64,000 nucleotides of DNA. Origin: Nitrososphaerota archaeon. Lineage in GTDB: Archaea > Thermoproteota > Nitrososphaeria_A > Caldarchaeales > Calditenuaceae. The position numbers and the translations under genes were made by a program. Shown here one piece after another: positions 5,723 to 26,547 of this stretch. Location: positions 72,667 through 136,666 of the forward strand of contig JAWBQR010000003.1 of the NCBI GenBank assembly GCA_038845265.1, written 5' to 3'. Every line of letters starts with the position of its first letter. Positions within the stretch are counted from its first letter, which is position 1. Below the pieces are notes generated by a model. That model searched no databases. It had not been told where the DNA came from and saw only the letters and a program-made list of their open reading frames with translations.

Positions 5723-5861
5723 CTACCCTACACCGAGTGTCAATGGTTCATCTTGCTTATCTACGTTGCTTTTTATCTAGTTTTATTATGCTGTTTTGAT
5801 GAAAATTTACATAAACATGCAAGTATTGATTTATTTACTGGGACAACTCGGGGTTTTTACG

Positions 5862-6073
5862 TGAGTCTTCCATTACCATATCCTCAGTTCTTCCAGCTGA
5901 TAATCGTCATTGATGGCTTGTTGACTTTGGGGTTTTATTTGTGGCTTAGGAGGCTGAGTAGGAGTAGTAGTTACTATGGGTTTGTTAGGGGAATGACGTT
6001 CTTCATGGCCGTCGTCTTGGTGGGCCTCGTCATCTCATACGTGGCCCAGGCAACATTCATGGGGTGGTTTTAG
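5862..6073 (+). CDS. Possible small 2-TM membrane protein just upstream of the ECF S component. Start codon uncertain
   Basis: The 3' part of ORF 5753..6073 is hydrophobic (…LIIVIDGLLTLGFYLW…FFMAVVLVGLVISY…) and ends 1 nt before the next gene. Confidence 0.3.
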
Positions 6074-6074
6074 G

Positions 6075-6665: not shown

Positions 6666-6674
6666 TGCTCAAAA

Positions 6675-7496: not shown

Positions 7497-7506
7497 GAGA
7501 TGAGAT

Positions 7507-11265: not shown

Positions 11266-11378
11266 CGATGACTCTCTCTATCGGCGGCTTAATAAAGAAG
11301 CTCTGGGGCAGTGTAGGGATTAATAGGAGGCATGGAGACCTATTTCTCGTGGATATTAGGTCGAAGGAAAGCTACCTG

Positions 11379-11774
11379 ATGATGCTTGACTATGTCTACT
11401 CGAGGCTGGGGAGCAGGGCTGGGAAGGGTGGAGACAGGATGATAGAGCTGGTCCCGACAGTCCTCCACGAGCAGAAACAGACAATCATTACTAATTTTAG
11501 ACAACTCGCCGAGTCCATGAATAGGGAGCCTGAGCATCTCGCAAGGTTCATCTTCAAGGAGACAGGAAGACCTGGAACAGTAGAGAAGGACAGGCTGATA
11601 ATCAGCGGAAAGATGACAGACGCTGAGATCGTGAGGCTACTACAGCTCTACTTCAGAGAGTTCGTCAGATGCCCAGTCTGTGGAGGAGTAGACACAGAGA
11701 TAACGAGCGAGAAGAGGTTCAGATTCCTAGTATGCGAGGTATGCGGGGCCAAAAGCTCAATAAGAAAAATCTAA
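11379..11774 (+). CDS. eif2b: Translation initiation factor 2 beta subunit (aIF2-beta)
   Basis: C-terminal zinc ribbon …VRCPVCGGVDTEI…FLVCEVCGA… and an eIF2beta core. I chose the internal ATG at 11379, since the 11268 start would abut ahcY head-to-head. Confidence 0.75.
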   Translation: MMLDYVYSRLGSRAGKGGDRMIELVPTVLHEQKQTIITNFRQLAESMNREPEHLARFIFKETGRPGTVEKDRLIISGKMTDAEIVRLLQLYFREFVRCPVCGGVDTEITSEKRFRFLVCEVCGAKSSIRKI

Positions 11775-12685
11775 ACCAAAAACACATCACTGGTACTAAC
11801 ACCGAACTGCAGTAACAATCGTTTACTATATCTAAAAATGTCCGGAATGCCATAATTACATTCAACATAAAACCCAGAAACTTCTTTCGGGTCTTTAAAC
11901 CTCTCCCCCGTTGAGTGTGTAGGCTTATCATTTACAAGATATCTTTTACTTCTTTGTCCTGCTCTTATGGGAATATTGCTGCTCGTTATTCTTTTAGTCT
12001 CGACCAGCCATTCAACAGTCCTTAATAATATGTCTCGCCATCGCTTAAGCATGTATCTTCTCCCATCGGGAAATACTATCTCGCTAAACTTCATCGGAGA
12101 GCCTTGCTTAGGCTTAATGCTACTTAGCGATACACCTCTTTTTTCAGGTGGTTTTGGAATTACTTTTGTCTCCTGAATCGTTAGTGGTTTAGATGCCTCA
12201 CTGACGAGGGGCGAGTACCTAAAGAGTATGAAGGCCTTTCTAAGGACTTCTCCCGGCTCGTCCTTAGTTATGTCCCATTCAGCAATCTTCTTCTCTGGTA
12301 GCGGCTTGAGCGCATAAGTATCATAGACCTCCCACTTGGCGCCATCAGTCGCGATAAAGTATTTCACACCCTCAGCGACGCAGTAGGAGATGTATTGCTG
12401 AAGGTCTTCCTGTTTTCCGAGACTCTTCGCCCCTATGAAAACGAGCGGCCTCTCACCGCCATGCAACAGTGCGTAATCCGGGCGTCCAGCCTGAGTAGAG
12501 AACTCAGGCCTCACCTGCTCTGGGTCTTCTAAGTCCCAGCCCAATAGCCTAAGGAAAGGGTCAATAAGGACATAACGAGTCAATAACTCATTTTTCGCCA
12601 ACTGATCCCTATATCTATCCACTCGCCTCTGCAACTCGGCAATTTTATCAATTAATGTCTGAAACAACTCAAAGATAATAGCCAT
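11771..12685 (-). CDS. HsdR-N/Mrr-like PD-(D/E)xK nuclease-domain protein with an uncharacterised C-terminal domain
   Basis: N-terminus …TRYVLIDPFLRLLGWDLEDPEQVRPEF…GRPDYALL…IGAKSLGK…ATDGAKWEVYD matches the type I restriction-enzyme R-subunit N-terminal domain. Lies in an AT-rich stretch. Confidence 0.5.
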   Translation of the reverse strand: MAIIFELFQTLIDKIAELQRRVDRYRDQLAKNELLTRYVLIDPFLRLLGWDLEDPEQVRPEFSTQAGRPDYALLHGGERPLVFIGAKSLGKQEDLQQYISYCVAEGVKYFIATDGAKWEVYDTYALKPLPEKKIAEWDITKDEPGEVLRKAFILFRYSPLVSEASKPLTIQETKVIPKPPEKRGVSLSSIKPKQGSPMKFSEIVFPDGRRYMLKRWRDILLRTVEWLVETKRITSSNIPIRAGQRSKRYLVNDKPTHSTGERFKDPKEVSGFYVECNYGIPDIFRYSKRLLLQFGVSTSDVFLV

Positions 12686-12732: not shown

Positions 12733-13959
12733 TTATTGACAGGCTGTTTCATAGAAGTATGGTATCGAAGATATTGTAGGCCTATCGATTAAATAATCAC
12801 ATGCATCAAACGAGTAACCAGACTGGAAAAGCCTAATAGTTCTCAACAGATAGAGAACAAATTGTATTAGGAATGAAAAGATAACAAAGTTACACAGATA
12901 CTTATTCTTTGATCTTAATTCTTTTAATCCCTGACCAACCATGTATGGCATTACTGGCAATAAATATGCTGTATGCCTAAAGAAGTCAATGTCACCTTTC
13001 AAAAATAAAAGTCCTACTGCAATAAATAATCCCAGAATAAACTGATACTTAACCGTGCTGTCCAGCGAATTAAAACGCTTAAGTACAAAAAATATCGGTA
13101 ACAATATTGCAAACGCAATTAGATTTATTGCCACTCTGAGAATAATCGTAATCTCGTTTGTAGCAATTACTGGTAATTTTACAAATGATAGATAAGAAGC
13201 GACATCATGAGCAGTAATCTCCCATGGGAGTATAGATGATAATACTGTCATGACTGCTCTATAACTTTCAATTGGCGTAGGAATGTGGGGCTGAAAATCA
13301 GAATAAGAATTACCTTCACTCATTGCAATATATGAATAATAAGTTAGTAATCCAATTATCCATCCACAAAACATTAACAATGTTGCCATTCTCAGCGACC
13401 TATCACCTTTGATATGATGTAAAACGATGAGGGTGGTAACGAGTAAGGGGAGGAAAACAAAAGCCGTCTCTCTGGTGAGGACCATTAAAAGAGGCAACAA
13501 AAGTAACAAGATATTCATAGATTTATTTCTATTCCTAAAAAGAATCAATAATAATGCCGTATTTAATAATGCAGTAAGAGCATCAACATAGGTACGTGAA
13601 AACAACAAATAAATCGGGGGCCATAATAAACCAACTAAACCAATCCGAGAAACAGTGTCTCGAATCATATGTACTTGAAGAAAAATGAAAATAATTAGTA
13701 AGCATGCAAGAATGACTTTATAGTAATTCCCTGTTATAGCTAACAAAAAATAATATAACGGAGCCCTTACGCATAAAGACATAGAATCTTTGGTACAGAC
13801 TGGGTCGTAAGCAAAGCCAGTCTTCCGCATAACCTTACTCGTCCAATAAACAACAGCTGGGTCACCATATAGAGGAGAAACAAAAATCAGAAATATAACA
13901 CTGATAATGTAAGTAAATAATGTGAATACTTGATAAATATTATCGTGGCTAAGCCGCAC
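12733..13959 (-). CDS. Polytopic (~11-12 TM) membrane protein, possibly a GT-C-type (PMT_2/ArnT-like) glycosyltransferase
   Basis: 408 aa, very hydrophobic, ~33% GC. No diagnostic motif is certain. Confidence 0.3.
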   Translation of the reverse strand: MRLSHDNIYQVFTLFTYIISVIFLIFVSPLYGDPAVVYWTSKVMRKTGFAYDPVCTKDSMSLCVRAPLYYFLLAITGNYYKVILACLLIIFIFLQVHMIRDTVSRIGLVGLLWPPIYLLFSRTYVDALTALLNTALLLILFRNRNKSMNILLLLLPLLMVLTRETAFVFLPLLVTTLIVLHHIKGDRSLRMATLLMFCGWIIGLLTYYSYIAMSEGNSYSDFQPHIPTPIESYRAVMTVLSSILPWEITAHDVASYLSFVKLPVIATNEITIILRVAINLIAFAILLPIFFVLKRFNSLDSTVKYQFILGLFIAVGLLFLKGDIDFFRHTAYLLPVMPYMVGQGLKELRSKNKYLCNFVIFSFLIQFVLYLLRTIRLFQSGYSFDACDYLIDRPTISSIPYFYETACQ

Positions 13960-14032
13960 GTAGTTTATCGTATCTATTCGATTTTTAAACTTTAATCATG
14001 CAGAAAGTGTTTGATTATCCAAAAAGTTAGAC

Positions 14033-14455
14033 TTACTTTATTTTTTCTAGTATTATGGCTGGGCAGACCCTTGTGACGCCGTCTAGTTTGTTTATTTTTT
14101 TTACAAATTCTGATAGTTCCTGCGAATCCTTAAACCAGCACTCAGCAAGCATCATGTGGTCGCCCGTTGAAGTATACAGGTTGATAACCTCCTCTATTTT
14201 CTTCAGTTCATCTACTATGTAGAGAAATTTCTCCGGAGACGCATCAATCCCTATGAGGACATGAACATTATATCCAAGCTTACGCAAATCAACCACCACT
14301 GTATACTTCTTTATCACGCCTTCCTCCTCGAGTTTTCTAATCCTCTTCCTGACAGCCGCCTCAGAAACTCCAAAAACTCCTGCTAACTCTGTGTATGACC
14401 TTCTGGCGTCCTCTCTCAGTAGCTTTATTAAGTCATGGTTCGTTATTCGAACCAT
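14033..14455 (-). CDS. lrp: Lrp/AsnC-family transcriptional regulator
   Basis: N-terminal HTH (…[41 protein letters not shown]…) plus C-terminal RAM domain, 140 aa. Confidence 0.85.
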
Positions 14456-14509
14456 AAAACATTAATAATCGTCTTATTTAATAAATATTACGAACAGGTG
14501 AAGAAAAAA

Positions 14510-15178
14510 ATGGGAACCAATGTTGAGGTTGGAAAGCTTCCACTAATCGGCGATAAGATGCCGAGCTTTAAGGCAAGAACAACCAAGGGAGTGATCAATT
14601 TCCCAGAAGACTTAAAGGGAAAATGGATAGTACTGTTCTCTCATCCAGGAGACTTTACGCCCGTATGCACGACGGAGTTCCATGCCTTCCAGAAGAGATA
14701 TAACGAGTTCAAACAGCTAAACTGCGAGCTCGTCGGCCTAAGCATCGACCAAGTATTCAGCCATATACAATGGGTCAGATGGATAAAGGAAAATCTGAAT
14801 ACCACTATTGAGTTCCCCATTATTGCTGATAGTGCTGGACAAATCGCATCCATGCTCGGAATGATACATCCAAAGAAGGGAACAAACACTGTGAGGGCAG
14901 TCTTCATAATAGACCCAGAAGGAGTAGTCAGAGCAATCTTCTACTACCCACAAGAACTCGGAAGAAACATCGACGAGATACTCAGAGCCGTCAGAGGCCT
15001 ACAAGTTGCTGACAAATCCAAGGCCGCCCTACCTGCAAACTGGCCCAATAATGAAATCATAGGAGATAAAGTAATCGTGCCACCCGCAACAGACGAAGCA
15101 ACCGCAGAAGAACGCCTAAAACAATACAAGGGATTCGACTGGTGGTTCGTCTACAAAGAACCAAGCCCAACCACCTAA
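14510..15178 (+). CDS. prx: Peroxiredoxin (Prx6/1-Cys-type thioredoxin peroxidase)
   Basis: …[15 protein letters not shown]… peroxidatic-Cys motif. I start at the ATG at 14510 (MGTNVEV…) rather than the track's upstream start. Confidence 0.85.
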
Positions 15179-15495: not shown

Positions 15496-16215
15496 TCAGC
15501 GCTTCCTACGACCAGTCCGACGAGCAGCAATAAGCCCAACCTTCTGACCAGGCGGAGCCGTACGCTTCACCGGCTCAGGACGACCAATCCTCTTATGACT
15601 ACCCCCACCAAACGGATGCCTCGCAGGAACCATCGCAACACCCCTAACACGCGGATAAGGACGATGACGAGCCCTCATCAAATGATACCTCTTACCAGCC
15701 TTCAACATCGGCTTATCAGTACGACCACCACCAGCCACAATACCCACGACAGCCAACGCCTTACTACTAACCTCGGCAAGCTTCTTCGACGGAAGCTCAA
15801 TAATCGTCCTATCACCAAGCTGAGAGACAACAGAGGCATAAGCACCCGAAGACCTCACAAGCTTACCACCATCACCAGGAGAATGCTCAATACAAGAGAC
15901 AAGACCACCCTCAGGAACCTTACCAATCGGCACAATGTTCCCAGTAGCAACGCTAGCATCAGCACCAGCCTCAATCACCTGACCAACATACAGCCCCTGA
16001 ACAGCCGGAAGATAAAACACATGACCATCCATCTCCACCTCAGCCACAGGAACACCACGACCAGCATCATGAACAATGTCCCTCACAACCCCCCTCAACA
16101 AACCAGCAGAACCAATAACACTCGAAGGATAACCAACCGCATACCTCCTCTGAATACTACCGACATAAGTCGGCGAACCCCTACCAATCCTCTGAGCCCT
16201 AATCCTACGCGGCAA
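15496..16215 (-). CDS. rpl2: 50S ribosomal protein L2 (uL2), TTG start
   Basis: …GRGSPTYVGS…, …HPFGGGSHK… L2 signatures. Third codon positions are almost exclusively G/T. Confidence 0.9.
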   Translation of the reverse strand: MPRRIRAQRIGRGSPTYVGSIQRRYAVGYPSSVIGSAGLLRGVVRDIVHDAGRGVPVAEVEMDGHVFYLPAVQGLYVGQVIEAGADASVATGNIVPIGKVPEGGLVSCIEHSPGDGGKLVRSSGAYASVVSQLGDRTIIELPSKKLAEVSSKALAVVGIVAGGGRTDKPMLKAGKRYHLMRARHRPYPRVRGVAMVPARHPFGGGSHKRIGRPEPVKRTAPPGQKVGLIAARRTGRRKR

Positions 16216-16227
16216 ACACCACCACCC

Positions 16228-16500
16228 CTAAAACACACCAAGCCTCACAGCAAGATCCGAAGCCCTATACTCAGGCCTAAGCTTCACATACGCCTTCTTC
16301 ACACCCCTCGGCGTAATCAACGTATTAACCTTCTCAACCCTAACACCATAAAGACTCTCAACCGCACGCTTCACATCACTCTTCGAAGCCCCCAAAGAAA
16401 CAATAAAAGTCAACTTATTCTCCCGCTCAATCAACGAAACCGCATCCTGCGTAATCACAACACCCAAAATAACCTCCTCAGGCCTCAACGCCAAAGACAC
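16228..16500 (-). CDS. rpl23: 50S ribosomal protein L23 (uL23). Start re-assigned to GTG/TTG overlapping the L4 stop
   Basis: …[46 protein letters not shown]…. The track's 116-aa version extends into the L4 gene in another frame. Confidence 0.8.
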
Positions 16501-17299
16501 CCCCAAGAACACCAAGAGCAGAAGAAGAAAAAACCACAAGCCTACCAGGATGACCTCCAGGCGCCAAATGAAGAACACTCAAATCCCTCACATCAACAAC
16601 CTCAACGCCGGGAACACTCCCAGCAGCCCTAGATATGCCCTCATCACGAGAAACAACAATTAGAGGACCAACACGACGCTTATACCTCCTTCCCCTCCGC
16701 TTGCCCTTACCAGACCTCACCTTCCTCTCCCTGCACCTCTCCAACTCTTCTCCAAGCCCAAGACGCACCAAGAAGTCGACCAAGTCCTTCGCCCTCGAGA
16801 CACGCTCAATCTCATCCACAACAACGATCGGAACATCCAGGCCATCCGGGACTCGATGCCCCCTCTTCCTAACCCATTCAAGATTAGCAGTAAATGCAAG
16901 CGCAGAAAAAAGCGCCGACCTCCTCTCCTTATCATTCACATCCTTATGAATCCGCTTCTCAGGAACAGGAGGATGCGTCGGCCTCCCACCGACCGCAGTA
17001 GGGACAAACCCACCCGCATTACTCTTACCCGTACCAGTCACCCTCAGCCTAGAAATCCTCGCCAAGCCATAACCAGCACCAAGAGACTCAACAGAATACT
17101 TATGCCCAGAACCCCTCCACGCACCTTTAGGCTGAACCCGATGAGAAAAGAGAGCATTAAAGACCCTCTGCACAAGCAATGGCCTAAGAGGAGCATTAAA
17201 GACCCGGGGAAGAATCGTCCTGCCCTTCTCCACCCCATCTAAGCCGTAGACCCTGACCTCTCTCGGCTCAGAGACGCTGATACGCGTTAAGATACTCAT
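16478..17299 (-). CDS. rpl4: 50S ribosomal protein L4 (uL4)
   Basis: 273 aa, L4 family (…[17 protein letters not shown]…). Lies between L3 and L23. Confidence 0.85.
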
Positions 17300-18294
17300 G
17301 ATGCAAGCACCTCTCCTCCATAAATGTACGAGACGATCTTTGGCGGACTCACCGAATGGCTGGGTGGCTTCGCAGGCATCCTGAGCACAACCGGTCTCTT
17401 AGGAGTGCCGAAAACTGATCCAAGTACCACGATGCATGGGGACTTCAGAACTGTGAAGTGCTTGAACCCGCCGCTCGGAGTCAGCTTGGCGCCGTCGTCA
17501 ATCACGGCCATCACTCTTTTGTTGAACTCTGTTCTCCTATGATAACCCATCTGCCCAGCACGGGGGACAAATCTGGTGACATAAGTAGGTTTCCGCCCAC
17601 CGATTGCGCCGACCGCTCTACGAGTCTTTCTCTGCTTTCTTGGGAGAATCTTAACGCCAAATCTCTTTACAACGCCCTCGAATCCATGTCCCTTTGTGAC
17701 GCCTATGACGTCTACGTATAATCCAGGAGTAAACACTTCTGAGGCACTTATCTTACTCCCAAGCTTAGACATAACGTATTCAAGGGCTGAACGTACCTCT
17801 CCACCGACCTTGATTTCAAGGAGGAATGGGCGTTTCTGTGATAAGCCCGCCTCGCTTGGGAATGATGCGACAATTGCTCTTACCTCTACTGCCTTGTCAA
17901 GTAGGCTTTTAATCTCTTCTTTACCAGCGCCGGGAGATATGCCCCTGACTTTCTTGAGTAATGCTTCTGGCAGATTATCTGCATACATTCTTCCAAGCTC
18001 GATTAGATTGCCGTTTTCCTCGCCCATTAAGACCACGCCTATGATGTACATTGGTGGTGCAGCCAAGACAGTCGCAGCCGTCTGCACCTCAGTTCCGAAT
18101 GTAGGAGAGCCTGGCAGATCATCTACATAATGCAAAGTTAACGTACCTGCTTTATATGCAATGAATCCCATTAGCCCCTTTACACCATCTCTACTTGGCC
18201 AGTACCTTACGCTTGGAAGCAGTTCTTTAGCCCTCTTCCTCGGGCTATATGCTAATGACCCATGCCTCGGTGCCGAGTATTTCCTATGTCCCAT
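17296..18294 (-). CDS. rpl3: 50S ribosomal protein L3 (uL3)
   Basis: 332 aa, …GVTKGHGFEGVVKRFG… L3 signature. Codon usage is ordinary, unlike the three genes downstream. Confidence 0.9.
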   Translation of the reverse strand: MGHRKYSAPRHGSLAYSPRKRAKELLPSVRYWPSRDGVKGLMGFIAYKAGTLTLHYVDDLPGSPTFGTEVQTAATVLAAPPMYIIGVVLMGEENGNLIELGRMYADNLPEALLKKVRGISPGAGKEEIKSLLDKAVEVRAIVASFPSEAGLSQKRPFLLEIKVGGEVRSALEYVMSKLGSKISASEVFTPGLYVDVIGVTKGHGFEGVVKRFGVKILPRKQRKTRRAVGAIGGRKPTYVTRFVPRAGQMGYHRRTEFNKRVMAVIDDGAKLTPSGGFKHFTVLKSPCIVVLGSVFGTPKRPVVLRMPAKPPSHSVSPPKIVSYIYGGEVLAS

Positions 18295-18503: not shown

Positions 18504-18791
18504 ATGTCTGAGCAGACTCAAAGGACCACCATCGTCAGATTAGTATTAGATGTATTAAAGCCCCATAATCCAAACATTATTGATTTCAGTAGAAGTATTG
18601 CCCAAATCAGAGGAATAAGAAGAGTAGATGCATCGGTTATAGAGGTTGATGTGGAGACGGAGACAATTAAATTGATAATAGAAGGAAGTGAATTAGATGT
18701 CTCAAAAATCGAGGAGGTAATTAAAAAATTGGGAGCAGCAATTCATAGCATAGATGCTGTAGTAATAGAGAAATCTGATGTAAAGAAATGA
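18504..18791 (+). CDS. DUF211-family small protein
   Basis: 95 aa, …IVRLVLDVLKPHNPNIIDF…IEGSELDVSKIEEVIKKLGAAIHSIDAV…. Confidence 0.6.
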   Translation: MSEQTQRTTIVRLVLDVLKPHNPNIIDFSRSIAQIRGIRRVDASVIEVDVETETIKLIIEGSELDVSKIEEVIKKLGAAIHSIDAVVIEKSDVKK

Positions 18792-18805
18792 TGTGGATAC
18801 TTTAA

Positions 18806-19408
18806 ATGTTGTTAGAGAAACTTGTTCGTCGCATCAGGTTGATAATGAGTCTGACGGAAACAAGTGGAATAGCTAGACGTTACTTTGCACTTAATGCTTT
18901 CGATGGCGCGCTGATCGGACTGGGCGCAATCTTTGGTTTTTATATTTCGGGGATGTATGACTACAGAGTAGTCCTTTTGACAATAATGGCGATAGCTGTT
19001 GGGTCGGCAATCTCTGGTTTTTCCGGTGCCTTTATATCAGAAAAACTTGAGCAAGAGGCTAGGGTAAAGCGACTTGAGGAGGCCATTCTTACTAATCTTA
19101 AGGATAGCATTCATTACCAAGCAAGTTTAACAAGTTCTATTATAGTTTCCATAATTAATGGTGTTAGTTCATTGATTTCTATTTTTAGTGTCTCTGCTCC
19201 ATATGTTATTTGTATCTACTTATCACTAAGTGAGGTTGTTGGAATATTAAGCTCCATAACGGCATTTTTTGCCGTGCTAACCATATTGGGATATTTTTTC
19301 GGAAGAGAACTGAAGATAAGGACGATAAGTGTTGTTTCAAGAATTTTATTAGTTGGAATAGTAGCAATAGTTATTTACTTTTTAATTGAGTTAGTATTTC
19401 GGCTTTAG
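18806..19408 (+). CDS. VIT1/CCC1-like family membrane protein (putative metal transporter)
   Basis: …YFALNAFDGALIGLGAIFG… resembles the GANDGLVS block. About 4-5 TM, 200 aa. Confidence 0.45.
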   Translation: MLLEKLVRRIRLIMSLTETSGIARRYFALNAFDGALIGLGAIFGFYISGMYDYRVVLLTIMAIAVGSAISGFSGAFISEKLEQEARVKRLEEAILTNLKDSIHYQASLTSSIIVSIINGVSSLISIFSVSAPYVICIYLSLSEVVGILSSITAFFAVLTILGYFFGRELKIRTISVVSRILLVGIVAIVIYFLIELVFRL

Positions 19409-20422
19409 GCTCAATAATTCTTCTGGCCGATGTATTCCCACTTCCGTTATTATTCTTGTAATGAGTTCGGGTGGAGTTATGTCGAATGCATAATTTATAG
19501 CTCTTGCCTTTCGTGGTGTTATTCTTTTTCCAGCAAAATATAAAACTTCATTTGGATTACGTTCTTCTATGATGACCTCATCTATGGTTTTATCAAAATC
19601 TATTGTACTTGTTGGGGCTGCTACGTAGAGTGGGATTTTGTAGTAGTTAGCGGATATTGCTAATTCTAATGTACCTACCTTGTTTATAACGTGTCCTGTC
19701 TTAGCAATAATTCTGTCTGCTCCTACGACTATGCAGTTCACAAGGCCTCTACTCATAAGAAATGGCGCCATGTTATCTGTTATGACCCTATATTCTATTT
19801 TGGCGGTTTCTAGCTCATATGCAGTCAGACGCGCACCCTGCAGCTTAGGCCTAGTCTCCGGCACGATGACTGATATTTTCTTTCCCATCTCTACTGCTGC
19901 TTTTATCACGCCCAATGCTGTCCCGTACCCAGCAGTTGCTAGAGCACCTGCATTGCAGTAGGTCATGACCACCCCCCTATCAGGTAAAAGCCTAGCCCCG
20001 TTCTGACCAATTTTTCGATTCATCTCAACATCCTCCATAGATATTTTTTCCGCCTCCAACAATACTGTTTTAGCTACATCATCGTTCTTTATCCATGCTG
20101 ATTCCGCGGCTTTGAGCACTCTATCAATGGCCCAATATAGATTAACCGCTGTGGGTCTTGTCTTTCTTAAAATATTCGCTGCCTTTTGGAGTGATTTGAG
20201 TACGTCTTTCTTATTTTTTCTAGCATGGACTGCTGCAAGGGCTAATCCATATGCAGCGGCTACTCCAATCGCTGGAGCACCTCTCACCGTCATGTCTCTT
20301 ATGGCCTTTGCGACTTCAAGATAATTTTTACATCTCACATATCTCAGCTTATGCGGAAGTACCTTTTGATCTATTAGGTATAGTGAGTTATTCCGCCAGT
20401 ATAAGGTTCTTAGCTCTCTCAA
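19391..20422 (-). CDS. eIF-2B alpha/beta/delta-like isomerase (ribose-1,5-bisphosphate or methylthioribose-1-phosphate isomerase family)
   Basis: 343 aa, …MTVRGAPAIGVAAAYGLALAA…, …TYCNAGALATAGYGTALGVI…, …VGADRI…. Confidence 0.8.
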   Translation of the reverse strand: MRELRTLYWRNNSLYLIDQKVLPHKLRYVRCKNYLEVAKAIRDMTVRGAPAIGVAAAYGLALAAVHARKNKKDVLKSLQKAANILRKTRPTAVNLYWAIDRVLKAAESAWIKNDDVAKTVLLEAEKISMEDVEMNRKIGQNGARLLPDRGVVMTYCNAGALATAGYGTALGVIKAAVEMGKKISVIVPETRPKLQGARLTAYELETAKIEYRVITDNMAPFLMSRGLVNCIVVGADRIIAKTGHVINKVGTLELAISANYYKIPLYVAAPTSTIDFDKTIDEVIIEERNPNEVLYFAGKRITPRKARAINYAFDITPPELITRIITEVGIHRPEELLSLKPKY

Positions 20423-20454: not shown

Positions 20455-21432
20455 CTATAGCCCGTACTCGCTAAGGATGTCTGATACACATATTGCTTTC
20501 TTTGTATTTATTGATTGGAGGATGGCCTCCGCCACAGCCGTGGCCCTAGCACCTTCTAGACACCCCGGAGATAAATCCTCGTTTTTTCTTAAAGAGGCTA
20601 CAAAATATTTCAACTCGTTTTTTAGAGGTTCTGAGTTTGGCGTCATTGGCATATAAGTTCCCTCCGATTTTTCTATGACTACCTCTCGACTTAGAAATTC
20701 TAAGTGAATTACACCTTCGGTCCCCGTGATTCGGAGGTCTCTTTTTTTCCGTGGCGTCAGCCAGTTAGCCTCAATGATGGCAGATCTCTCCTCCTTAAAG
20801 GTGATTAATGCCTGTATATAGTCTTCGTTAGAATGTCTCAGAGAGCCTCCAGCAGCGTATACAAAGATGGGCTGAGGACCGAAAAAATACATCGATAAGT
20901 CGATATCATGTATTGATGTATCCTTTAATACTCCAATATCACCAATTCTCTCTGGCCATGGGCCGATTCTCCGTCCATAGATAAGTAGTGGTCTTCCAAT
21001 TATACCACTCTCTAAAGAATCTTTTGCGACCTCCACTGCAGGATTAAATCTCTCTATAAATCCAACCATAAGACGCCTACCAGACGATTTAACAGCATCG
21101 ATGACTCTGATTGATTCATTAAGCGAGGATGCCATCGGCTTCTCCACAAATACGTCCTTACCCATCAACAGTGCATTAATGCTGATCTCGGCATGGGTGT
21201 TGGAAGGGGTACAAATTGTCACCGCGTCTACATCATCGCTCCGAAGGATGTCAAGATAGTTCTGAAATATTTTTGACACACCATATCTCTTAGCAATGTT
21301 TTTTGCACGTTCAAGATTTATATCGCACACCGCAGTCAAAGTAGCTCCCTCAAGCTCGGAAATTACCCTCGCATGATTAGCGCCCCAAAAACCTGTCCCA
21401 ATGATGCCTATCCTGATGGGGCCGCTGTCCAT
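20455..21432 (-). CDS. Gfo/Idh/MocA-family NAD(P)-dependent oxidoreductase
   Basis: N-terminal Rossmann IRIGIIGTGFWGANHA…, …EKPMA…, 325 aa. Confidence 0.8.
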   Translation of the reverse strand: MDSGPIRIGIIGTGFWGANHARVISELEGATLTAVCDINLERAKNIAKRYGVSKIFQNYLDILRSDDVDAVTICTPSNTHAEISINALLMGKDVFVEKPMASSLNESIRVIDAVKSSGRRLMVGFIERFNPAVEVAKDSLESGIIGRPLLIYGRRIGPWPERIGDIGVLKDTSIHDIDLSMYFFGPQPIFVYAAGGSLRHSNEDYIQALITFKEERSAIIEANWLTPRKKRDLRITGTEGVIHLEFLSREVVIEKSEGTYMPMTPNSEPLKNELKYFVASLRKNEDLSPGCLEGARATAVAEAILQSINTKKAICVSDILSEYGL

Positions 21433-21435
21433 TTT

Positions 21436-22560
21436 TTACTCACCAACTCCTACGTAGTCGCAGAGATTAATCACTACGACGCTCTTCCCCATAATAGACT
21501 TTACAGTATTTGCTACATATTTATTCCTAGTCGTTAATAAGACCACATCACATTTACCAGCATATGTCTTTATTCTTTCTTCAAACACCTCGGGCTTTGA
21601 CCTTTGAAGTTGATGAATCACAAACTTCCTTGAAGAGAGCTCGCTCAATATTTTCAATCCATCCCCGACCACGAGTATTCTAAGCCTCTCCCTGCCTTTT
21701 CTAAGCCCATCCAGCAAATTTATGAGGTCCATCTCAGCCATCCTTGACATTCTATGAAGAGTCCGCATGATGCCTTTTCCCATCAAGAAATTTGACTCAA
21801 CACTATCAATTATTTTGAGAACTGGATGCCCACGCCTCGCTATAAAAGAAAGCCTAACACCCCTACCAAGAAGACCCTTCAAGACTGCCTTAGGTGAGAC
21901 CGATAATCTCCTAGTCAATAGGAGACTCTCGACTGTAGAAATTTCTATAGATAATTTCCTAATAAGTAGACTAATTGACGCGATCTCAGCCTCCAAGAGA
22001 CTTAGACCGGAGACTATTCGTTTTCCATCAACAATAGCCCTTACAATCTGAGCAGAACCCTTTGTTAGCCTCCCACCGACCGGTATACGGCCATCCAGCA
22101 GCAACGGCAATGGAAGATAAAGGAGAGTCCCGCCAGACGATGCGTCAAGATCAACCTCTCTCGTGACGAATTTAAAGAGTCTATCCATGAAGCCGGGAAA
22201 AGTAAGCCCAGTAACTATAATGGTCCCCCCTCTATGAAAATTCTTTGCAACACTTTGGACCAGTCTTAACACGTCCATGTCTTTAAGATCGTTTCTCAAC
22301 CCAGCCACGTATGAAATCAATAATGTCCCAGTTGTCCCAGCATCAATGTATCTGTTTGACTGTCTAAGTCTATTGCTATTTATTGAGTCCGCGATAAGCC
22401 TCACATAAGCAGGACTCAAGCATCTTTCCGCTAGACGCGTTATTCTATATTCTCCACCTATAGAGTAGTACGTAACAGTGAAATCTTTCTTCAATAGCTT
22501 TATGGTTGGATATATCCCAGCACCATCAATATCTAATACCTCGACCACTCTTCTCTTCAT
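21436..22560 (-). CDS. Hypothetical protein (~375 aa) inside the glycosylation cluster. C-terminus Rossmann-like
   Basis: No family recognised. I start at the internal M (MKRRVVEVLDIDG…), which gives a 4-nt overlap with the upstream small ORF. Confidence 0.4.
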   Translation of the reverse strand: MKRRVVEVLDIDGAGIYPTIKLLKKDFTVTYYSIGGEYRITRLAERCLSPAYVRLIADSINSNRLRQSNRYIDAGTTGTLLISYVAGLRNDLKDMDVLRLVQSVAKNFHRGGTIIVTGLTFPGFMDRLFKFVTREVDLDASSGGTLLYLPLPLLLDGRIPVGGRLTKGSAQIVRAIVDGKRIVSGLSLLEAEIASISLLIRKLSIEISTVESLLLTRRLSVSPKAVLKGLLGRGVRLSFIARRGHPVLKIIDSVESNFLMGKGIMRTLHRMSRMAEMDLINLLDGLRKGRERLRILVVGDGLKILSELSSRKFVIHQLQRSKPEVFEERIKTYAGKCDVVLLTTRNKYVANTVKSIMGKSVVVINLCDYVGVGE

Positions 22561-22793
22561 TTCTCTCTCCTCGTTAAAACTCTGTAAAACCAGTAGTAAG
22601 CGAGCGCAGCCCACCAGGCAAGCCATAATCCAAACAGCAACAGCGATGCAGCGACCCTCATTATGCTTGCCATTAGGTTTTCATAGACACCGCTAATTAT
22701 TGGAAGAACGATAAAGCCGATAACTGCCAAGACAGCGATGAATGAGACCCAAATGATCGATATAAGGAGAATCGTGAAAAAGAGCGTTCTCAA
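22557..22793 (-). CDS. Small 2-TM membrane protein (78 aa)
   Basis: Two clear hydrophobic helices and a basic C-terminus. Translationally coupled to the downstream gene. Confidence 0.45.
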   Translation of the reverse strand: MRTLFFTILLISIIWVSFIAVLAVIGFIVLPIISGVYENLMASIMRVAASLLLFGLWLAWWAALAYYWFYRVLTRREK

Positions 22794-22797
22794 AGAG

Positions 22798-23781
22798 TCA
22801 AACCACCTGGTCGATGAACTGAGTCAAGACGGCAAGTATCGAGGAGTATAAGCAGACTATTCCCATGTAGATGGCGATCTGAACCTCGCTTCTAGGCCTA
22901 TCAGCTGCAAGCATTCTGACTAATGTGAGAGGAGCGGCTGGGCTTAGATTTGACAATATTAAGTTGCCTGAGACCTTAATAGGTCTAGTAATGACTTGTT
23001 TACCTGATTTAAGGCCCCTCAATGAGACAAGGACATAAAACTCATTCATTATATGTGGAATTAAGGCAATGATTGCCACTACTTCAAGCCTAGAGGTGAT
23101 AGCGATTCCAGCAATAACCGCTCCTATCAAGTTGCTGCCAGCGTTTCCACTAAATGCCCTCGCAGGGCACCAGTTGTATTTCAGGAAACCCAGCATAGAG
23201 GCGACAAGAATCATTGCCATCAATGAGACATCTGTTTTATTATTCATTATTGATAGTCCTGCCAACGTTAATAGTGGTGGAAGACTTGTAAGGACAAGTG
23301 ATCCGTTGACGACGTCTAGACTATTAACAGCGTTCGTTACGATTGTATAGGCAACTAACACAAGTAATGGATAGAGTATCGTGATTCTGACCTGTCCTAT
23401 GAACGGAAGGATCGGCCTAGGTTCATAGAGCCCGAGAAACACTATGGGAAGACCCGGCAATATGAGCAATAATGGTTTTAGGATCGGGTTTAGTTCTCTA
23501 AAATCCTCAATTAATCCTATGATTGCAGCTATTGCAGGCGCTATTAAAAAAGGTACGATAAGGTCGTTTCTTGATAATATGAGGAATATTCCTGAAGCTG
23601 CTAGGTAAGTGATTACTATTGCGAGACCCCCTATGCGGGGAACTAAGGGGTGTCCGGGCTTATGCACATCTCTACCCAGTATTCCCCGTGAAAAAGAGAA
23701 CTTGATAATTAATTTAGTTAATAATAGAGATGAGATAAATGAGAGAAGGAATAAGCCCGCGAGTAGTATGATGTTCTCCAT
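22798..23781 (-). CDS. aglH: UDP-GlcNAc:dolichyl-phosphate GlcNAc-1-phosphate transferase (GT4, MraY/WecA/AglH family)
   Basis: …GLIEDF…, …VNSLDVVNG…, …PARAFSGNAGSNLIG… motifs in a 10-TM protein. Confidence 0.8.
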   Translation of the reverse strand: MENIILLAGLFLLSFISSLLLTKLIIKFSFSRGILGRDVHKPGHPLVPRIGGLAIVITYLAASGIFLILSRNDLIVPFLIAPAIAAIIGLIEDFRELNPILKPLLLILPGLPIVFLGLYEPRPILPFIGQVRITILYPLLVLVAYTIVTNAVNSLDVVNGSLVLTSLPPLLTLAGLSIMNNKTDVSLMAMILVASMLGFLKYNWCPARAFSGNAGSNLIGAVIAGIAITSRLEVVAIIALIPHIMNEFYVLVSLRGLKSGKQVITRPIKVSGNLILSNLSPAAPLTLVRMLAADRPRSEVQIAIYMGIVCLYSSILAVLTQFIDQVV

Positions 23782-23880
23782 GCATTATCCCATCTAAGAT
23801 TGGCTTAATATATGGTTAATTCTAATATCTTGATAAGCATTGCGGATGCCATTAATCTTAATGATAGGAGGAGTGAATAA

Positions 23881-24933
23881 ATGGACGTTTGGGTAGACAT
23901 CCTCACACCGAAACAAGTATTGTATTTCTGGCCAGTCGTAGAAAAACTTAGAGACAAGGGCCATGAAGTATTAGTTACCGCACGGAGGTATGAACAGCTT
24001 GACTGGCTGATCAGCAGAATTAATCTGGATATAAAGGTAATAGGCGAGTTTGGAGGAGAGACACTATACGGCAAGCTCCTATCAAGTACTAGGAGACAAC
24101 TCGAACTACTAGAATTATTCAGAGAAGATAAGCCTAGAATTGTATTATCGAGCGGCTCAATAGAAGCCTCCAGGATTTCATATGGATTGGGAGCGCGGCA
24201 TATATTGGCTTCAGACACTGTTCACTCACCAGTGAATAGAATATGTGTTCCACTATCTGAATTAATCCTGACTCCACGCTTTATTCCAATAAAGGAGTGG
24301 CTGAGATATGGTGCAAAAAAAGGAATGATTAAGAGATATAGATCTCTCGATCCAGTCGCATGGATGAAGAGAATAAGTACTTTTCAGGAATCTTATATGG
24401 AAATTGACTTGCCGGAAAATTATATATTGGTAAGGACGCCGGAGAGTAAGGCATCATACATTCTTGGTAAAGGACTAGAGGAGGTAATTAAACTAATTAA
24501 CATTATTACAAAACTTGAAGAATACAGCATAGTAGTGTTGACAAGATACAGAGAAGAAGCTAACCTTATTAGAGAAAAATTGCCCAAAGGCATAATTATA
24601 ATTGAGAAGCCTATATTAGCTATTCCATTAATTAAAAAAGCGAGCCTTGTTTTATCAGGAGGCGGAACAATGACTCAAGAAGCAGCGCTCCTAGGTAAAC
24701 CTACAATAATGTTTTATCCTGGAAAACTTCCAGCCGTGCATAGATTCCTAGCTAGGTTAGGACTAATAAAGAGGATTCCACCAAGCATGCTTCATAGGGT
24801 TCCCTATATTGCTGCTCAACTATTATCCGAAAAATCGAAAAGTAAACTCGCCGCAAAAGCTGAAAAATTAATGAGGACACTCGAAGACCCAGCTGAGTTT
24901 ATTTATCGATATGTTAATTCACTTCTGACATAA
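23881..24933 (+). CDS. DUF354-family protein (predicted glycosyltransferase-like, archaeal)
   Basis: N-terminus MDVWVDILTPKQVLYFWPVVEKLRDKGHEVLVTARRYEQL… matches the DUF354 consensus (MKIWIDI..P.H..FF…GHEV.ITAR). Confidence 0.55.
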   Translation: MDVWVDILTPKQVLYFWPVVEKLRDKGHEVLVTARRYEQLDWLISRINLDIKVIGEFGGETLYGKLLSSTRRQLELLELFREDKPRIVLSSGSIEASRISYGLGARHILASDTVHSPVNRICVPLSELILTPRFIPIKEWLRYGAKKGMIKRYRSLDPVAWMKRISTFQESYMEIDLPENYILVRTPESKASYILGKGLEEVIKLINIITKLEEYSIVVLTRYREEANLIREKLPKGIIIIEKPILAIPLIKKASLVLSGGGTMTQEAALLGKPTIMFYPGKLPAVHRFLARLGLIKRIPPSMLHRVPYIAAQLLSEKSKSKLAAKAEKLMRTLEDPAEFIYRYVNSLLT

Positions 24934-26547
24934 TTCTCTGAGAGTATCCTCTATGCTTAATAACTTGTCATAAGCGTATCTCAAGTCTTTTCTGAATGAA
25001 TCATATATCTTCTTGTAGCTTTGCTGGCTTAATTCACCTTTCTGAAAATCTGTATAATTCCTCAGAATTACTCTCAATGCCTCACTAAGCACACCTAACG
25101 ATGAGTTTATCTCCTTTGTTGTTTCCTGTATCTCGATTGTTTTTTCCTCTAGTTTTTCAATCGAGTTTATAACTTCATCAGCAATTCTGCGCACAACGTG
25201 TACCTTATCAGTCATAACTTGCGGTCTCGTCTTTACAGCCGTGGGGGATAACCCATTCTCGATCTCCAGTAATATTGATCTCAACTTTTGTAATTCTTGT
25301 ATAGCTTTTGAAATTGTCTGTAAATCCTTTTGACTTATTATCTTAGTCCGCGGAAACTTACCGCGGATTACCTGCAATACGATGGCACTTAATATTATGA
25401 CTACAAAGCCTCCGCCTATGATCCAAGAGGCAAGAGAAGCTGAGCTAGACGACTTGACCAATGGAAGAGTGATGTAATTGTTTTGATAGATATTTAGTTC
25501 TCTGCTCTCGATTCTTGCGATAGCTGCTCCAGCCTCGTCGTGATGATATTCAGCAACATTTGCATTTGTCATATCAACTTCGTATCCGGCTGGAAGAATT
25601 ACAGAAATACTCAATGAACCGACTGTTGCATTTATTGGTGTGAAGAGTAATATCTTCACTTCATCGTCATTTATGTACATTGTTTCTGGTGTCTGGCATT
25701 TTGCCAAAATTGTGAATGTGTATCTCCACGAGTTTTGGAGGGCATATCGTGACTGTTCAAGATTGACAGTGAGTATATTTTTTTCTTTGCTCCATGAGTA
25801 GGACAGCTTACCTAGAGTGTCTCTTACTTCCTTTACTTCAATTCCATTGGGAAAATTTAGGTCCAACTGTCTCAGCAAGCTATTAGCTTGGTTCTTTATC
25901 CTCATCGTTATGACTATAATTGATTCTGAAGGCTCATAAGTCATGTCAAGACTTTCAACATGAATTAGAGATATTCCACTCGAGATTAGCCTAATTCTTA
26001 TCGGATCTGGAATCGTATCACCAGAAATCGTGATGTTGTTTTTCTCTAATCCACGATTAGTTAGTGTCCAGTCTGAGGGGGCACCCGGATATCTAACGTA
26101 ACTCGTTGATGAGAAGAGTATATTTGCATGGACAGTCTGTCCCTGAATTAAGGGCTCAGCATTTATGACTAACTCGTAGTTATTTCCTCCCGCATCATAT
26201 ATTAATTCTCTATAAATTGCTGTAATTATCAAATCCGTCGACTTGGGGTTTATCTCATAAATGTATAGTCCCGACGGTGACTTTTCTATGAATTTGCTTT
26301 CCCCGCCATTAACTACGAGTTGAACAAGTCGGTTATGCATCTCTTCAACTATTCCAAACCTAAAGCTATCATCCGCTCCGTGAATCTTATCTACCACATA
26401 TACCAGGCCACCGTTCTCCGGAATGATAGTCCTATCAACCATAAGAACATTTTCCGGCCTAGCAGAGATAGGCATCAAGAAGATTAGCAATACCGCCAAG
26501 ACCACGATGATCGGAATCCTCAATTTCTTATCCAAAGCTATAATCAT
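24919..26547 (-). CDS. Type-I membrane surface protein: signal peptide, ~340-aa ectodomain with many N-x-S/T sequons, one TM, ~150-aa cytoplasmic coiled-coil tail
   Basis: Signal/TM MIIALDKKLRIPIIVVLAVLLIFLMPISA, TM …WIIGGGFVVIILSAIVLQVI…, helical K/E/L-rich C-terminus. Confidence 0.5.
   Translation of the reverse strand: MIIALDKKLRIPIIVVLAVLLIFLMPISARPENVLMVDRTIIPENGGLVYVVDKIHGADDSFRFGIVEEMHNRLVQLVVNGGESKFIEKSPSGLYIYEINPKSTDLIITAIYRELIYDAGGNNYELVINAEPLIQGQTVHANILFSSTSYVRYPGAPSDWTLTNRGLEKNNITISGDTIPDPIRIRLISSGISLIHVESLDMTYEPSESIIVITMRIKNQANSLLRQLDLNFPNGIEVKEVRDTLGKLSYSWSKEKNILTVNLEQSRYALQNSWRYTFTILAKCQTPETMYINDDEVKILLFTPINATVGSLSISVILPAGYEVDMTNANVAEYHHDEAGAAIARIESRELNIYQNNYITLPLVKSSSSASLASWIIGGGFVVIILSAIVLQVIRGKFPRTKIISQKDLQTISKAIQELQKLRSILLEIENGLSPTAVKTRPQVMTDKVHVVRRIADEVINSIEKLEEKTIEIQETTKEINSSLGVLSEALRVILRNYTDFQKGELSQQSYKKIYDSFRKDLRYAYDKLLSIEDTLRELCQK

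Follow-up and report, generated by a model that had tools for sequence, protein, structure and literature searches.

A conserved gene block with an OST1-like protein, a DUF354 protein and an aglH operon as a probable core N-glycosylation locus of Caldarchaeales

We describe a block of genes at positions 20455-26547 of a 64,000-nucleotide stretch of DNA from a Nitrososphaerota archaeon (assembly GCA_038845265.1, contig JAWBQR010000003.1, positions 72,667 to 136,666; hereafter the window, in whose numbering coordinates are given). In our opinion it probably represents a conserved core N-glycosylation locus of Caldarchaeales (Aigarchaeota), which brings together glycan initiation, sugar supply and an accessory subunit of oligosaccharyltransferase (OST). 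One of its genes encodes a homologue of the OST subunit OST1 (ribophorin I), and this gene is paired with a gene for a DUF354 protein next to an operon headed by aglH. A first-pass annotation of the same interval saw an AglH-centred module for initiation of lipid-linked glycans, with several members lacking an assigned function. Its core idea holds, as does the presence of several unassigned members. The label of surface protein and the lineage have to be given up, and the 374-amino-acid (aa) unknown turns out to be derived from the UDP-sugar 6-dehydrogenase (UGDH) family.

The six open reading frames (ORFs) that had been claimed are all found at their coordinates and on their strands. On the minus strand, aglH (22798-23781; Pfam Glycos_transf_4) encodes a polytopic HexNAc-1-phosphate transferase of AglH / Alg7 (DPAGT1) type, 327 aa long. 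Behind it come genes for a 78-aa protein with two transmembrane (TM) segments (22557-22793; recognised from gene junctions, hydropathy and family alignment), for a 374-aa UGDH-family pseudoenzyme (21436-22560; structure match and profile alignment) and for a 325-aa Gfo/Idh/MocA oxidoreductase (20455-21432; Pfam and NCBIfam), all on the same strand. The junctions are tight. The TTG start of the 78-aa ORF lies 4 nt from the aglH stop and its own stop shares an ATGA overlap with the start of the 374-aa gene, as befits the translational coupling proposed for it; a 3-nt gap separates the 374-aa stop from the Gfo start. The longest ORF at the 374-aa gene would span 21436-22626 (minus strand, 396 aa), and the gene callers and all relatives start at the ATG at 22560. 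Upstream of aglH, an AT-rich region of 99 nt, read directly from the sequence (23782-23880), presumably holds two promoters, its own and that of the divergent gene for a 350-aa DUF354 protein without TM segment (23881-24933, plus strand; Pfam DUF354), whose ATG is preceded by GGAGG 8 nt upstream. The last gene (24919-26547, minus strand) encodes the 542-aa OST1/ribophorin I homologue, identified by Pfam, Foldseek and architecture; it converges on the DUF354 gene and their 3´ ends overlap by 15 nt. The labels given earlier to the Gfo/Idh/MocA, AglH-type and DUF354 products are backed by Pfam/NCBIfam, and the divergence of DUF354 from aglH was rightly noted. Scans of the region with Rfam and for tRNAs gave no match.

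The lineage is of Caldarchaeales/Aigarchaeota type. Relatives of the encoded proteins carry the names Aigarchaeota, Caldarchaeum subterraneum, Caldarchaeales, Terraquivivens and Wolframiiraptor, and an exact copy of the 542-aa protein is present on a contig of another metagenome-assembled genome labelled "Nitrososphaerota archaeon" (GCA_042137215.1). The Thermoproteales/Thermofilaceae setting suggested before is thus replaced by that of Aigarchaeota, Caldarchaeum and Caldarchaeales.

Gene order in related archaea

A motif scan of GTDB species genomes for DUF354 yielded 349 relatives. The best 80 loci were searched with hidden Markov models (HMMs) built from our own alignments, and their lineages were classified from record titles. 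Close relatives (55-62% identity) keep the gene order throughout the 20 kb, which says little. The order OST1-like / DUF354 / AglH / small TM protein / (UGDH-like) / Gfo / IF-2B is however kept in the distant loci L009/L010, L011, L012/L013, L017, L018 and L019, whose OST1-like proteins are only ~17-24% identical to that of the window. The outer flanks of these loci all differ and comprise genes for ribosomal proteins, CdvA and actin, HEPN/MNT, DNA polymerase, UbiA or a large glycan island. Conserved synteny with aglH, on which the proposed module depended, is therefore present in distant relatives with differing surroundings. The conserved block reaches one gene beyond 20455-26547, to the IF-2B/MtnA-like gene discussed below. 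The glycan island stands in L019 (1-7800), directly upstream of the OST1-like gene, and encodes an NTP-transferase, a true UGDH, two GT1 and three GT2 glycosyltransferases and an NDP-sugar epimerase/dehydratase.

In 42 of the 80 loci, the genes for the OST1-like and DUF354 proteins meet tail to tail (-23 to +10 nt). All of these bear Caldarchaeales/Aigarchaeota-type or unresolved thermophilic Nitrososphaeria labels, and none belongs to an ammonia oxidiser, Bathyarchaeia or Baldrarchaeota. These three groups make up most of the 30 loci that possess no OST1-like gene despite at least 1.7 kb of downstream sequence. AglH was found in 44 loci, as a rule followed directly by the gene for the small TM protein, and this time Bathyarchaeia, Baldrarchaeota and ammonia oxidisers are included; Gfo likewise occurs in 44. 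The mutual orientation of the genes varies among lineages: AglH and DUF354 are divergent in Caldarchaeales (with a spacer of ~0-115 nt, counted between stop-to-stop ORF ends), co-directional in Baldrarchaeota, convergent in Bathyarchaeia and ~3.8 kb apart in ammonia oxidisers. At least 16 of the 80 loci contain the pair of DUF354 and OST1 without AglH within at least 2 kb upstream, amid unrelated neighbours such as HerA/NurA. We considered that glycosylation genes might be hidden in the flanks of such loci and abandoned the idea, as the flanks encode HerA/NurA, fumarase and an acetyl-CoA synthetase-like protein.

Since DUF354 co-occurs in this survey with AglH, the small TM protein and Gfo on one side and with OST1 on the other, it is the hub of the association: the former three accompany it across the sampled TACK lineages and Baldrarchaeota, the latter within Caldarchaeales.

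Proteins encoded in the block

The 542-aa protein begins with a signal peptide (~1-29; a hydrophobic stretch at 7-23 is followed by ISA|R), continues with a beta-rich ectodomain (~60-365) and a single TM helix (~370-394), and ends in a basic cytosolic part of 148 aa (395-542; 27 K+R against 22 D+E). Its AlphaFold2 (AF2) model places strands at 62-365, the TM helix at 370-394 and four long helices at 406-541, the latter with a predicted local distance difference test (pLDDT) score of ~83. The Pfam family Ribophorin_I (PF04597) matches residues 218-322 with 25.9 bits (cutoff 25, E 6.7e-6). The same family is hit individually by 9 of 29 members of the archaeal family (best E 2.7e-8), and the L019 orthologue has a precomputed match with E <= 1e-5. 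When the AF2 model was compared with PDB by Foldseek, the best six matches were chains of human and yeast OST complexes, aligned near full length with E-values from 7.6e-14 to 8.4e-9: 8b6l_O (7.6e-14), 8pn9_E, 6s7o_E, 6ezn_A, 6s7t_E and 8agb_E, from structures of human OST-A/translocon, human OST-B and yeast OST. The highest scores belong to those entries in which the cytosolic bundle is present, and the following matches are aminopeptidase beta-domains at ~1e-6. The family profile moreover weakly matches 8whn_A ("Ribophorin 1 superfamily protein", E 0.0048, amid coiled-coil noise), which is taken to be the C-terminal domain of OST1 from Asgard archaeon MK-D1 described in PMC11417166. Pfam match, structural similarity and architecture together identify the 542-aa protein as a homologue of OST1/ribophorin I.

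The family is small and uniform. When 1.84 billion representative proteins were searched exhaustively with the family profile, 33 members were returned, mostly of 500-557 aa and mostly matched in full length (a few shorter ones look like fragments), alike in architecture and with net positive tails of 128-153 aa. HMMER made no link from these 33 relatives to eukaryotic or Asgard sequences in that search. A narrow alignment found nothing among PDB sequences at E <= 10, and a word-index homologue search with a broad OST1 alignment retrieved only 9 close relatives. Every database source names the proteins "hypothetical protein".

Compared with OST1 of eukaryotes and Asgard archaea (PF04597; 6EZN, 6S7O, 8B6L, MK-D1 8WHN), the 542-aa protein has the same type-I architecture and shares with the human and MK-D1 proteins the cytosolic four-helix domain of ~145 aa. 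It differs in being only ~11% identical, in belonging to Caldarchaeales, outside Asgard, and in the pairing of its gene with DUF354 rather than with STT3 or OST3. Previously, Lombard (2016) did not find archaeal OST1, Eme (2023) confined prokaryotic OST1 to Asgard, and a single sentence of PMC11417166 ascribes OST1 to both TACK and Asgard archaea. That study also showed ribosome binding by the four-helix domains of the human and MK-D1 proteins (PMC11417166). By analogy, the basic four-helix domain of the window's protein may dock to the ribosome or translocon.

The protein had been described as an N-sequon-rich type-I surface protein. Signal peptide, ectodomain and single TM helix agree with a type-I protein, although the Ribophorin_I match makes it more than a surface protein. 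The richness in sequons was mistaken: there are 4 N-X-S/T sequons, 2 of them extracellular, as against 4.1 +/- 1.8 in composition-matched shuffles, and relatives have 1-5. We therefore predict the 542-aa protein to be a part of glycosylation machinery, not a likely substrate. Most likely it is a non-catalytic partner of an oligosaccharyltransferase AglB encoded elsewhere. One sequon, N306-A-T (around 25630-25632), lies within the motif F-T-P-I-N-A-[TS]; Asn306 is invariant in an alignment of eight sequences, with PLNAT as consensus across the 29 family members. At this single conserved site, the OST1-like protein may carry an N-glycan of its own.

The DUF354 protein matches its Pfam family (PF04007, GT-B clan) over full length with 167 bits, and is clearly predicted to be a GT-B clan enzyme. 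A profile of 20 sequences from Caldarchaeales, ammonia oxidisers, Bathyarchaeia and Baldrarchaeota contains 40 invariant positions, including D-x-x-x-P-K-Q (with a nearly invariant Thr), several basic residues of the N-terminal domain and G-G-T-x-x-x-E-x-x-L-x-G-x-P. Its best PDB match is the GT28-type processive diacylglycerol glucosyltransferase 9wde (E 3.1e-5), followed by other glycosyltransferases; epimerases appear at E 0.2-1.4. Glycosyltransferase activity thus seems more likely than epimerase activity. We suggest, as a tentative hypothesis somewhat short of an even call, that the DUF354 protein adds the second sugar to dolichyl-diphosphate-linked N-acetylhexosamine (Dol-PP-HexNAc) and would so be a functional analogue of Agl24 and Alg13/14. 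Like Agl24 of Sulfolobus, Alg13-Alg14 and MurG, it is a GT-B protein, and its C-terminal segment G-G-G-T-x-x-Q-E-x-x-x-x-G-x-P aligns with the UDP-binding segment of MurG. As with MurG-MraY and Alg13/14-Alg7, its gene stands beside that of the initiating phosphotransferase. It departs from them in its Pfam family (there is no Glyco_tran_28 match, and membership of GT28 is not established), in having no membrane anchor, and in the motif D-x-x-T-P-K-Q of its N-terminal domain, where MurG and Agl24 have a loop that we take to be G-G-x-G-G-H. The Agl24 paper does not mention DUF354.

AglH scores 104 bits with Glycos_transf_4 (PF00953, cutoff 27), contains hydrophobic segments throughout, and has human DPAGT1 as its best PDB relative (E 3.1e-7), ahead of MraY. 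It shares with Alg7/DPAGT1, AglH and WecA the family, the polytopic build and the NAxNxxD..NG motif, here kept as NAVNSLD. Judging from this relationship, it would start the glycan on the cytoplasmic face by loading dolichyl phosphate with HexNAc-1-phosphate taken from a UDP-sugar; candidates for this sugar are GlcNAc and a di-N-acetylated derivative. The Caldarchaeales clade is distinguished by E-D in place of D-D and by G-N-x-G-S in place of G-D-x-G-S, found in 26 of 26 loci of Caldarchaeales type (L020-L073 and the window), while D-D and G-D are retained where Bathyarchaeia and Baldrarchaeota encode AglH beside DUF354. The new Asn aligns with D252 of DPAGT1. The changes at the two positions are correlated, conservative and clade-wide.

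A further difference from the known transferases of this type is that the aglH gene is always followed by the one for the small two-TM protein. We know of no counterpart of this partner in eukaryotes or bacteria. It consists of two hydrophobic helices with positive residues at both termini, and W15, R46, W57 and L64 are invariant across 8 lineages. Its 8 orthologues produced no relevant Pfam match even at E <= 10. The family HMM recognises the ORF directly downstream of AglH in Caldarchaeales and, with lower scores (19-40 bits), also in Bathyarchaeia, Baldrarchaeota and ammonia oxidisers. From this adjacency in four archaeal lineages, the 78-aa protein is probably a membrane subunit or partner of AglH. 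Its identity with Ost5/TMEM258, DPM2 or another small OST subunit was considered and found no sequence support. As for Ost5/TMEM258, the topology is opposite as well: the positive residues place both termini of the 78-aa protein in the cytoplasm, and those of TMEM258 are presumably on the luminal/outer side.

The 374-aa protein has no Pfam or NCBIfam match, and a narrow alignment found nothing among PDB sequences at E <= 10. The Rossmann-like C-terminus attributed to it was correctly recognised, as its AF2 model and Foldseek demonstrate: the top matches are UDP-ManNAc/UDP-Glc 6-dehydrogenases (4r16_A at 7.9e-11), then dozens of UGDH chains, and the protein has the three-domain fold (Rossmann, helical, Rossmann) of the UGDH family (PF03721/PF00984/PF03720). 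By hhalign, the narrow alignment against WecC alone was insignificant (Prob 0.2). A broad family alignment with syntenic orthologues from distant loci, compared with E. coli WecC and Ugd and two archaeal UGDHs of related loci, gave Prob 97% and E 1.2e-10 over 364 columns. One orthologue (L019) still matches PF03721 (E 1.5e-6).

Catalytic positions were read for 10 family members from the hhalign alignment in WecC numbering; an alignment by MAFFT with WecC and Ugd agreed in the N-terminal half and was left out for the catalytic Cys, its central domain being unreliable. The NAD loop G10-x-G12-x-x-G15 has become D-x-D-x-x-G, D33 (which binds the NAD ribose) is replaced by S, E159 by L, K212 by S/A/T/N/H and the nucleophile C266 by G/D/S/T/I/V, after a 7-residue deletion of the glycine loop. 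The UDP motif FKPNxDDxR is deleted. Catalytic Cys, Lys, Asn and Glu are all lost, the positions being substituted in 10 of 10 members, and no Cys is conserved among the 10. The 374-aa protein thus descends from the UDP-sugar 6-dehydrogenase family without being a working member of it: it is a catalytically dead pseudoenzyme. With NAD loop, catalytic residues and UDP motif gone, we infer that it can only serve as a scaffold or regulator. Homology thus ties neither this protein (UGDH-derived) nor the 542-aa one (OST1-like) to an unrelated housekeeping function.

The gene is missing in some Caldarchaeales (L009, L018, L025, L039 and L044 among them). In the Bathyarchaeia locus L087 the slot between Gfo and DUF354 is occupied by a true three-domain UGDH (5706-7142, minus strand), and in the ammonia-oxidiser locus L095 by a 385-aa protein without Pfam match (6727-7884, minus strand) that reaches only 18 bits with the pseudoenzyme HMM. 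The contents of this slot look like snapshots of an enzyme decaying in place. It is likely that an ancestral 6-dehydrogenase of the cluster degenerated to a non-catalytic, dispensable protein.

The Gfo protein contains three Pfam Gfo/Idh/MocA domains. The first-pass annotation had taken it for a type of UDP-sugar 3-dehydrogenase, which agrees with its best NCBIfam match, NF040723 (archaeal UDP-GlcNAc 3-dehydrogenase), at 282 bits over the whole profile, ahead of the next-best family at 166 bits. At the level of family, it is a probable UDP-GlcNAc 3-dehydrogenase (Agl19/MMP0352-like) and would catalyse the first step to 2,3-diacetamido sugars. Together with published structures, this family match fits the di-N-acetylated chitobiose-like core reported for related lineages: the N-glycan core of Pyrobaculum calidifontis is GlcA(NAc)2-beta1,4-Glc(NAc)2 (PMC8993221, PMC12153357), a di-N-acetylated core is also present in Nitrososphaera viennensis (PMC12153357), and Thermoproteales are without Agl24 (PMC8993221, PMC12153357).

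As in the pathways of Pseudomonas (WbpA/WbpB/WbpE/WbpD/WbpI) and Methanococcus (Agl17-19, MMP0350-0352), a homologue of the 3-dehydrogenase adjoins a UGDH-family protein. In the window, unlike in those pathways, the UGDH-family member is dead and aminotransferase and acetyltransferase are not encoded. Ammonia oxidisers add a hexapeptide acetyltransferase, found inside the cluster of L095, and Bathyarchaeia a true UGDH. The acetyltransferase of L095 matches the situation in Nitrosopumilus piranensis, where homologues of Agl17/Agl19 are near AglH according to locus-tag numbering.

The last gene of the conserved block, for the IF-2B family protein (MtnA-type isomerase, 343 aa; 19391-20422, minus strand), starts 32 nt past the Gfo gene. 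Its product scores 387 bits (cutoff 279) with NCBIfam TIGR00512 (MtnA, S-methyl-5-thioribose-1-phosphate isomerase). The gene adjoins the block in L005, L007, L009, L011, L012/13, L017, L019 and many of L020-L073; in L018 two inserted genes stand between, and in some loci (L012, L017) it is split in two ORFs. It was not detected in the loci of Bathyarchaeia, Baldrarchaeota or ammonia oxidisers. It is only a possible functional member of the cluster. Beyond it, the window contains genes for a DUF211 protein (95 aa) and a TIGR00267/VIT1-like membrane protein (200 aa; together 18504-19408, plus strand), a pair also present near the cluster in L012/13, L017 and L018.

Proposed pathway and alternative explanations

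The model of the pathway that the data support best starts from two joined sub-modules: an operon of aglH, the 78-aa gene, the gene for UGDH-fold pseudoenzyme and gfo (with or without the mtnA-like gene), and the convergent pair DUF354/OST1-like. Gfo would oxidise UDP-GlcNAc at position 3 on the way to 2,3-diacetamido sugars of a modified chitobiose core, the aminotransferase and acetyltransferase being encoded elsewhere in the genome. AglH together with its small partner would make Dol-PP-HexNAc, to which DUF354 might add the second residue. Upon flipping of the glycan, AglB would move it onto protein with the help of the OST1-like accessory subunit, whose cytosolic domain may touch ribosomes. 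The pseudo-UGDH would act as a non-catalytic accessory. The sequences themselves demonstrate the homologies, the lost catalytic residues, the operon and the conserved gene order; substrates, contacts between the proteins and the tie to AglB are inferred from these.

A bolder version of the proposal combines four statements. Caldarchaeales, although not Asgard, would have eukaryote-like multi-subunit N-glycosylation; the four-helix domain of OST1 would couple the membrane machinery to cytoplasmic partners, either ribosomes, as in human and Asgard cells, or the soluble DUF354 protein, which the tail-to-tail pairing of the genes suggests might be recruited to the membrane as Alg13 is by Alg14; DUF354 would be the missing core glycosyltransferase where close homologues of Agl24 are absent; and the two-TM protein would be an obligatory subunit of AglH. 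We consider it rather unlikely that all of them are correct at once.

Several results weigh against an N-glycosylation locus as outlined here. The Ribophorin_I score of the 542-aa protein is marginal and its match limited to residues 218-322; TM-scores of the Foldseek matches are only ~0.3, and the underlying model is of low confidence in the ectodomain (pLDDT 40-75, mean over the protein 62). The six OST-complex chains are taken to be RPN1/Ost1, partly on account of their lengths (~560-580 with and ~430 without the cytosolic domain). AglB/STT3 was not found in the window, and ORFs with the WWDxG motif of AglB were not found in ~95 related loci, so that the tie of this protein to an OST is one of homology. 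No further glycosylation genes came up when the window's 38 other ORFs of 150 aa or longer were scanned, and the window holds neither the aminotransferase nor the acetyltransferase needed for 2,3-diacetamido sugars. The score of Gfo is below the equivalog cutoff of NF040723 (450 bits). The chemistry of AglH may differ from that of its relatives, since Asn stands for an Asp and Glu-Asp for Asp-Asp at positions that we take to be metal-binding. The DUF354 family has no characterised member, and a six-sequence DUF354 profile aligns by hhalign with E. coli WecB in full length, as taken up below. A glycosyltransferase function was predicted for DUF354 before, yet with few catalytic residues conserved (PMC4520260).

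The possibility that AglB adjoins the OST1-like gene in some lineage was dropped because of the missing WWDxG ORFs. Large multi-TM ORFs near the related loci represent FeoB, CstA, a PMT_2 GT-C enzyme, a PTPS_related/YfhO-like protein and one product without Pfam family, not STT3, and in Pelearchaeum the 1203-aa ORF found upstream of the OST1 gene encodes reverse gyrase. The PMT_2 GT-C-type polytopic protein is encoded in L051 of Terraquivivens (12921-14942, minus strand) ~2 kb from the OST1-like gene, and the PTPS_related/YfhO-like GT-C-type polytopic protein in the Bathyarchaeia locus L078 (9209-11530, plus strand) within a few kb of the DUF354 cluster. Both could be glycosyltransferases that depend on lipid-linked sugars and work on the outside of the membrane.

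The alternatives differ in which part of the block they reinterpret. The most serious of them concerns DUF354, which could be a WecB-like modifier of nucleotide sugars (a 2-epimerase or similar), the cluster being then mainly a WecA/WecB/WecC or WbpA/B/I unit that supplies 2,3-diacetamido (mann)uronic acid. The alignment with WecB is collinear over 294 columns (E 1e-3), as against only the C-terminal 91 columns of MurG (the nucleotide-binding segment GGGT..QE..G.P, E 0.04); a PDB search with the single sequence also ranks WecB first, at E 0.05. The block further resembles E. coli wecA-wecB-wecC in its trio of folds (GT4 phosphotransferase, WecB-like GT-B and WecC-like protein), and its Gfo is WbpB-like. 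Nevertheless, D95, E117 and E131, which we take to be the catalytic acids of E. coli WecB, fall by hhalign on S93, L109 and P117 of DUF354; the WecC-like partner is without catalytic residues; besides the trio, the archaeal cluster encodes a homologue of OST1 and the small TM protein; and the 20-sequence profile prefers glycosyltransferases, as described above. A soluble epimerase tightly paired with a membrane protein of OST1 type would moreover be without parallel. This explanation we regard as unlikely. Against a UDP-GlcNAc 2-epimerase of WecB type (PF02350) speak the substituted positions and the NCBIfam wecB score of 24 bits, with a cutoff of 210. The block could also be held together by nothing but inherited gene order, with OST1-like and DUF354 genes having no functional link to the aglH operon. 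The collinearity of close relatives extends to unrelated housekeeping genes, the IF-2B, DUF211 and VIT1-like genes travel with the block too, and DUF354 with OST1 does without AglH in at least 16 loci, which is what one would expect in that case. However, the core persists in distant lineages with wholly different outer flanks, and DUF354 accompanies AglH and the small TM protein in Baldrarchaeota, Bathyarchaeia and ammonia oxidisers too, where three different gene arrangements are seen. Such repeated association across rearrangements argues for selection, and we find mere inheritance of gene order improbable.

The remaining two alternatives accept the association and change its purpose. Enzymes of the Glycos_transf_4 family also start the synthesis of bacterial O-antigen, enterobacterial common antigen and teichoic acid. 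With such precedents, the cluster might build a non-protein glycoconjugate (an envelope polysaccharide or lipoglycan) from a WecA-like step, and the OST1-like protein might be a chaperone of export or assembly. The lack of AglB near the loci and the PMT_2 GT-C enzyme of L051 would suit this idea; it is nonetheless quite improbable in our view, because the nearest PDB relative of AglH is DPAGT1 and not WecA or MraY, because no relatives other than OST subunits could be detected for the 542-aa protein, and because the ammonia oxidisers with related loci of AglH, small TM protein, Gfo and DUF354 include N. viennensis, which has an N-glycan with matching core (PMC12153357). Finally, the 542-aa protein might be a heavily N-glycosylated surface or S-layer-type substrate instead of machinery. 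Signal peptide, large beta-rich ectodomain, single TM helix and the sequon conserved at N306 are all compatible with a substrate. The number of sequons is not (two extracellular ones and no enrichment over expectation), nor are the Ribophorin_I matches of 9 among 29 members and the six best structural matches, which without exception are OST-complex chains; the conserved cytosolic helical domain of 148 aa, odd for a surface protein, corresponds to the architecture of OST1. A substrate role is thus highly improbable, and a core N-glycosylation locus with an OST accessory subunit is the explanation we prefer.

Other features of the window and meaning of the locus

The glycosylation cluster has the base composition of the bulk of the window. 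G+C is ~0.46-0.52 at 1-12000 and 16000-18000, and ~0.37-0.43 in the remaining parts, the cluster included; the high-G+C stretch at 16-18 kb covers the genes of ribosomal proteins L3 and L4. An actin-family protein (crenactin-like; Pfam Actin 57.6 bits) is encoded at 42813-44084 (minus strand) beside a 225-aa ORF without Pfam match (44120-44797, minus strand), and in the related locus L011 actin stands beside a faint CdvA match. A run of genes for pantothenate/CoA synthesis occupies 47917-50457 (plus strand) and encodes PPS_PS (archaeal phosphopantothenate synthetase), ketopantoate hydroxymethyltransferase and ketopantoate reductase. The product of 54280-55158 (minus strand) has a TackOD1 domain (66 bits; Thaumarchaeal output domain 1) and, at its C-terminus, a weak match to a TrmB-like winged helix (20 bits, below cutoff). 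Five ORFs of 196-408 aa had no Pfam match at the thresholds used: 12733-13959 (minus strand), 39385-40197, 2052-2762, 6075-6665 and 47081-47959 (all plus strand).

Each component of the glycosylation locus resembles a known kind, be it OST1, Alg7/AglH, the GT-B clan, UGDH or Agl19. In the literature that we could search, we found no description of a Caldarchaeales OST1 family fixed beside DUF354 and an initiation operon, of the UGDH-derived pseudoenzyme, of the small partner of AglH, or of DUF354 being linked to AglH across lineages. Non-catalytic OST subunits are counted among the eukaryotic signature proteins and, outside eukaryotes, credited to Asgard archaea alone (PMC10307638), and a 2024 review of archaeal N-glycosylation does not mention such subunits (PMC11407970).

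Taken together, the OST1 family of Caldarchaeales pushes the possible origin of multi-subunit OST outside Asgard, and it offers thermostable proteins for studying the function of OST1. Synteny nominates DUF354 for the addition of the second sugar of a modified chitobiose core in lineages without close Agl24 homologues. It likewise nominates a small membrane partner of AglH and a pseudoenzyme that has replaced a UDP-sugar dehydrogenase. The cluster does not represent a new category of system; rather, it gives archaeal glycobiology, and research into how the eukaryotic OST evolved, a useful lead that can be tested.

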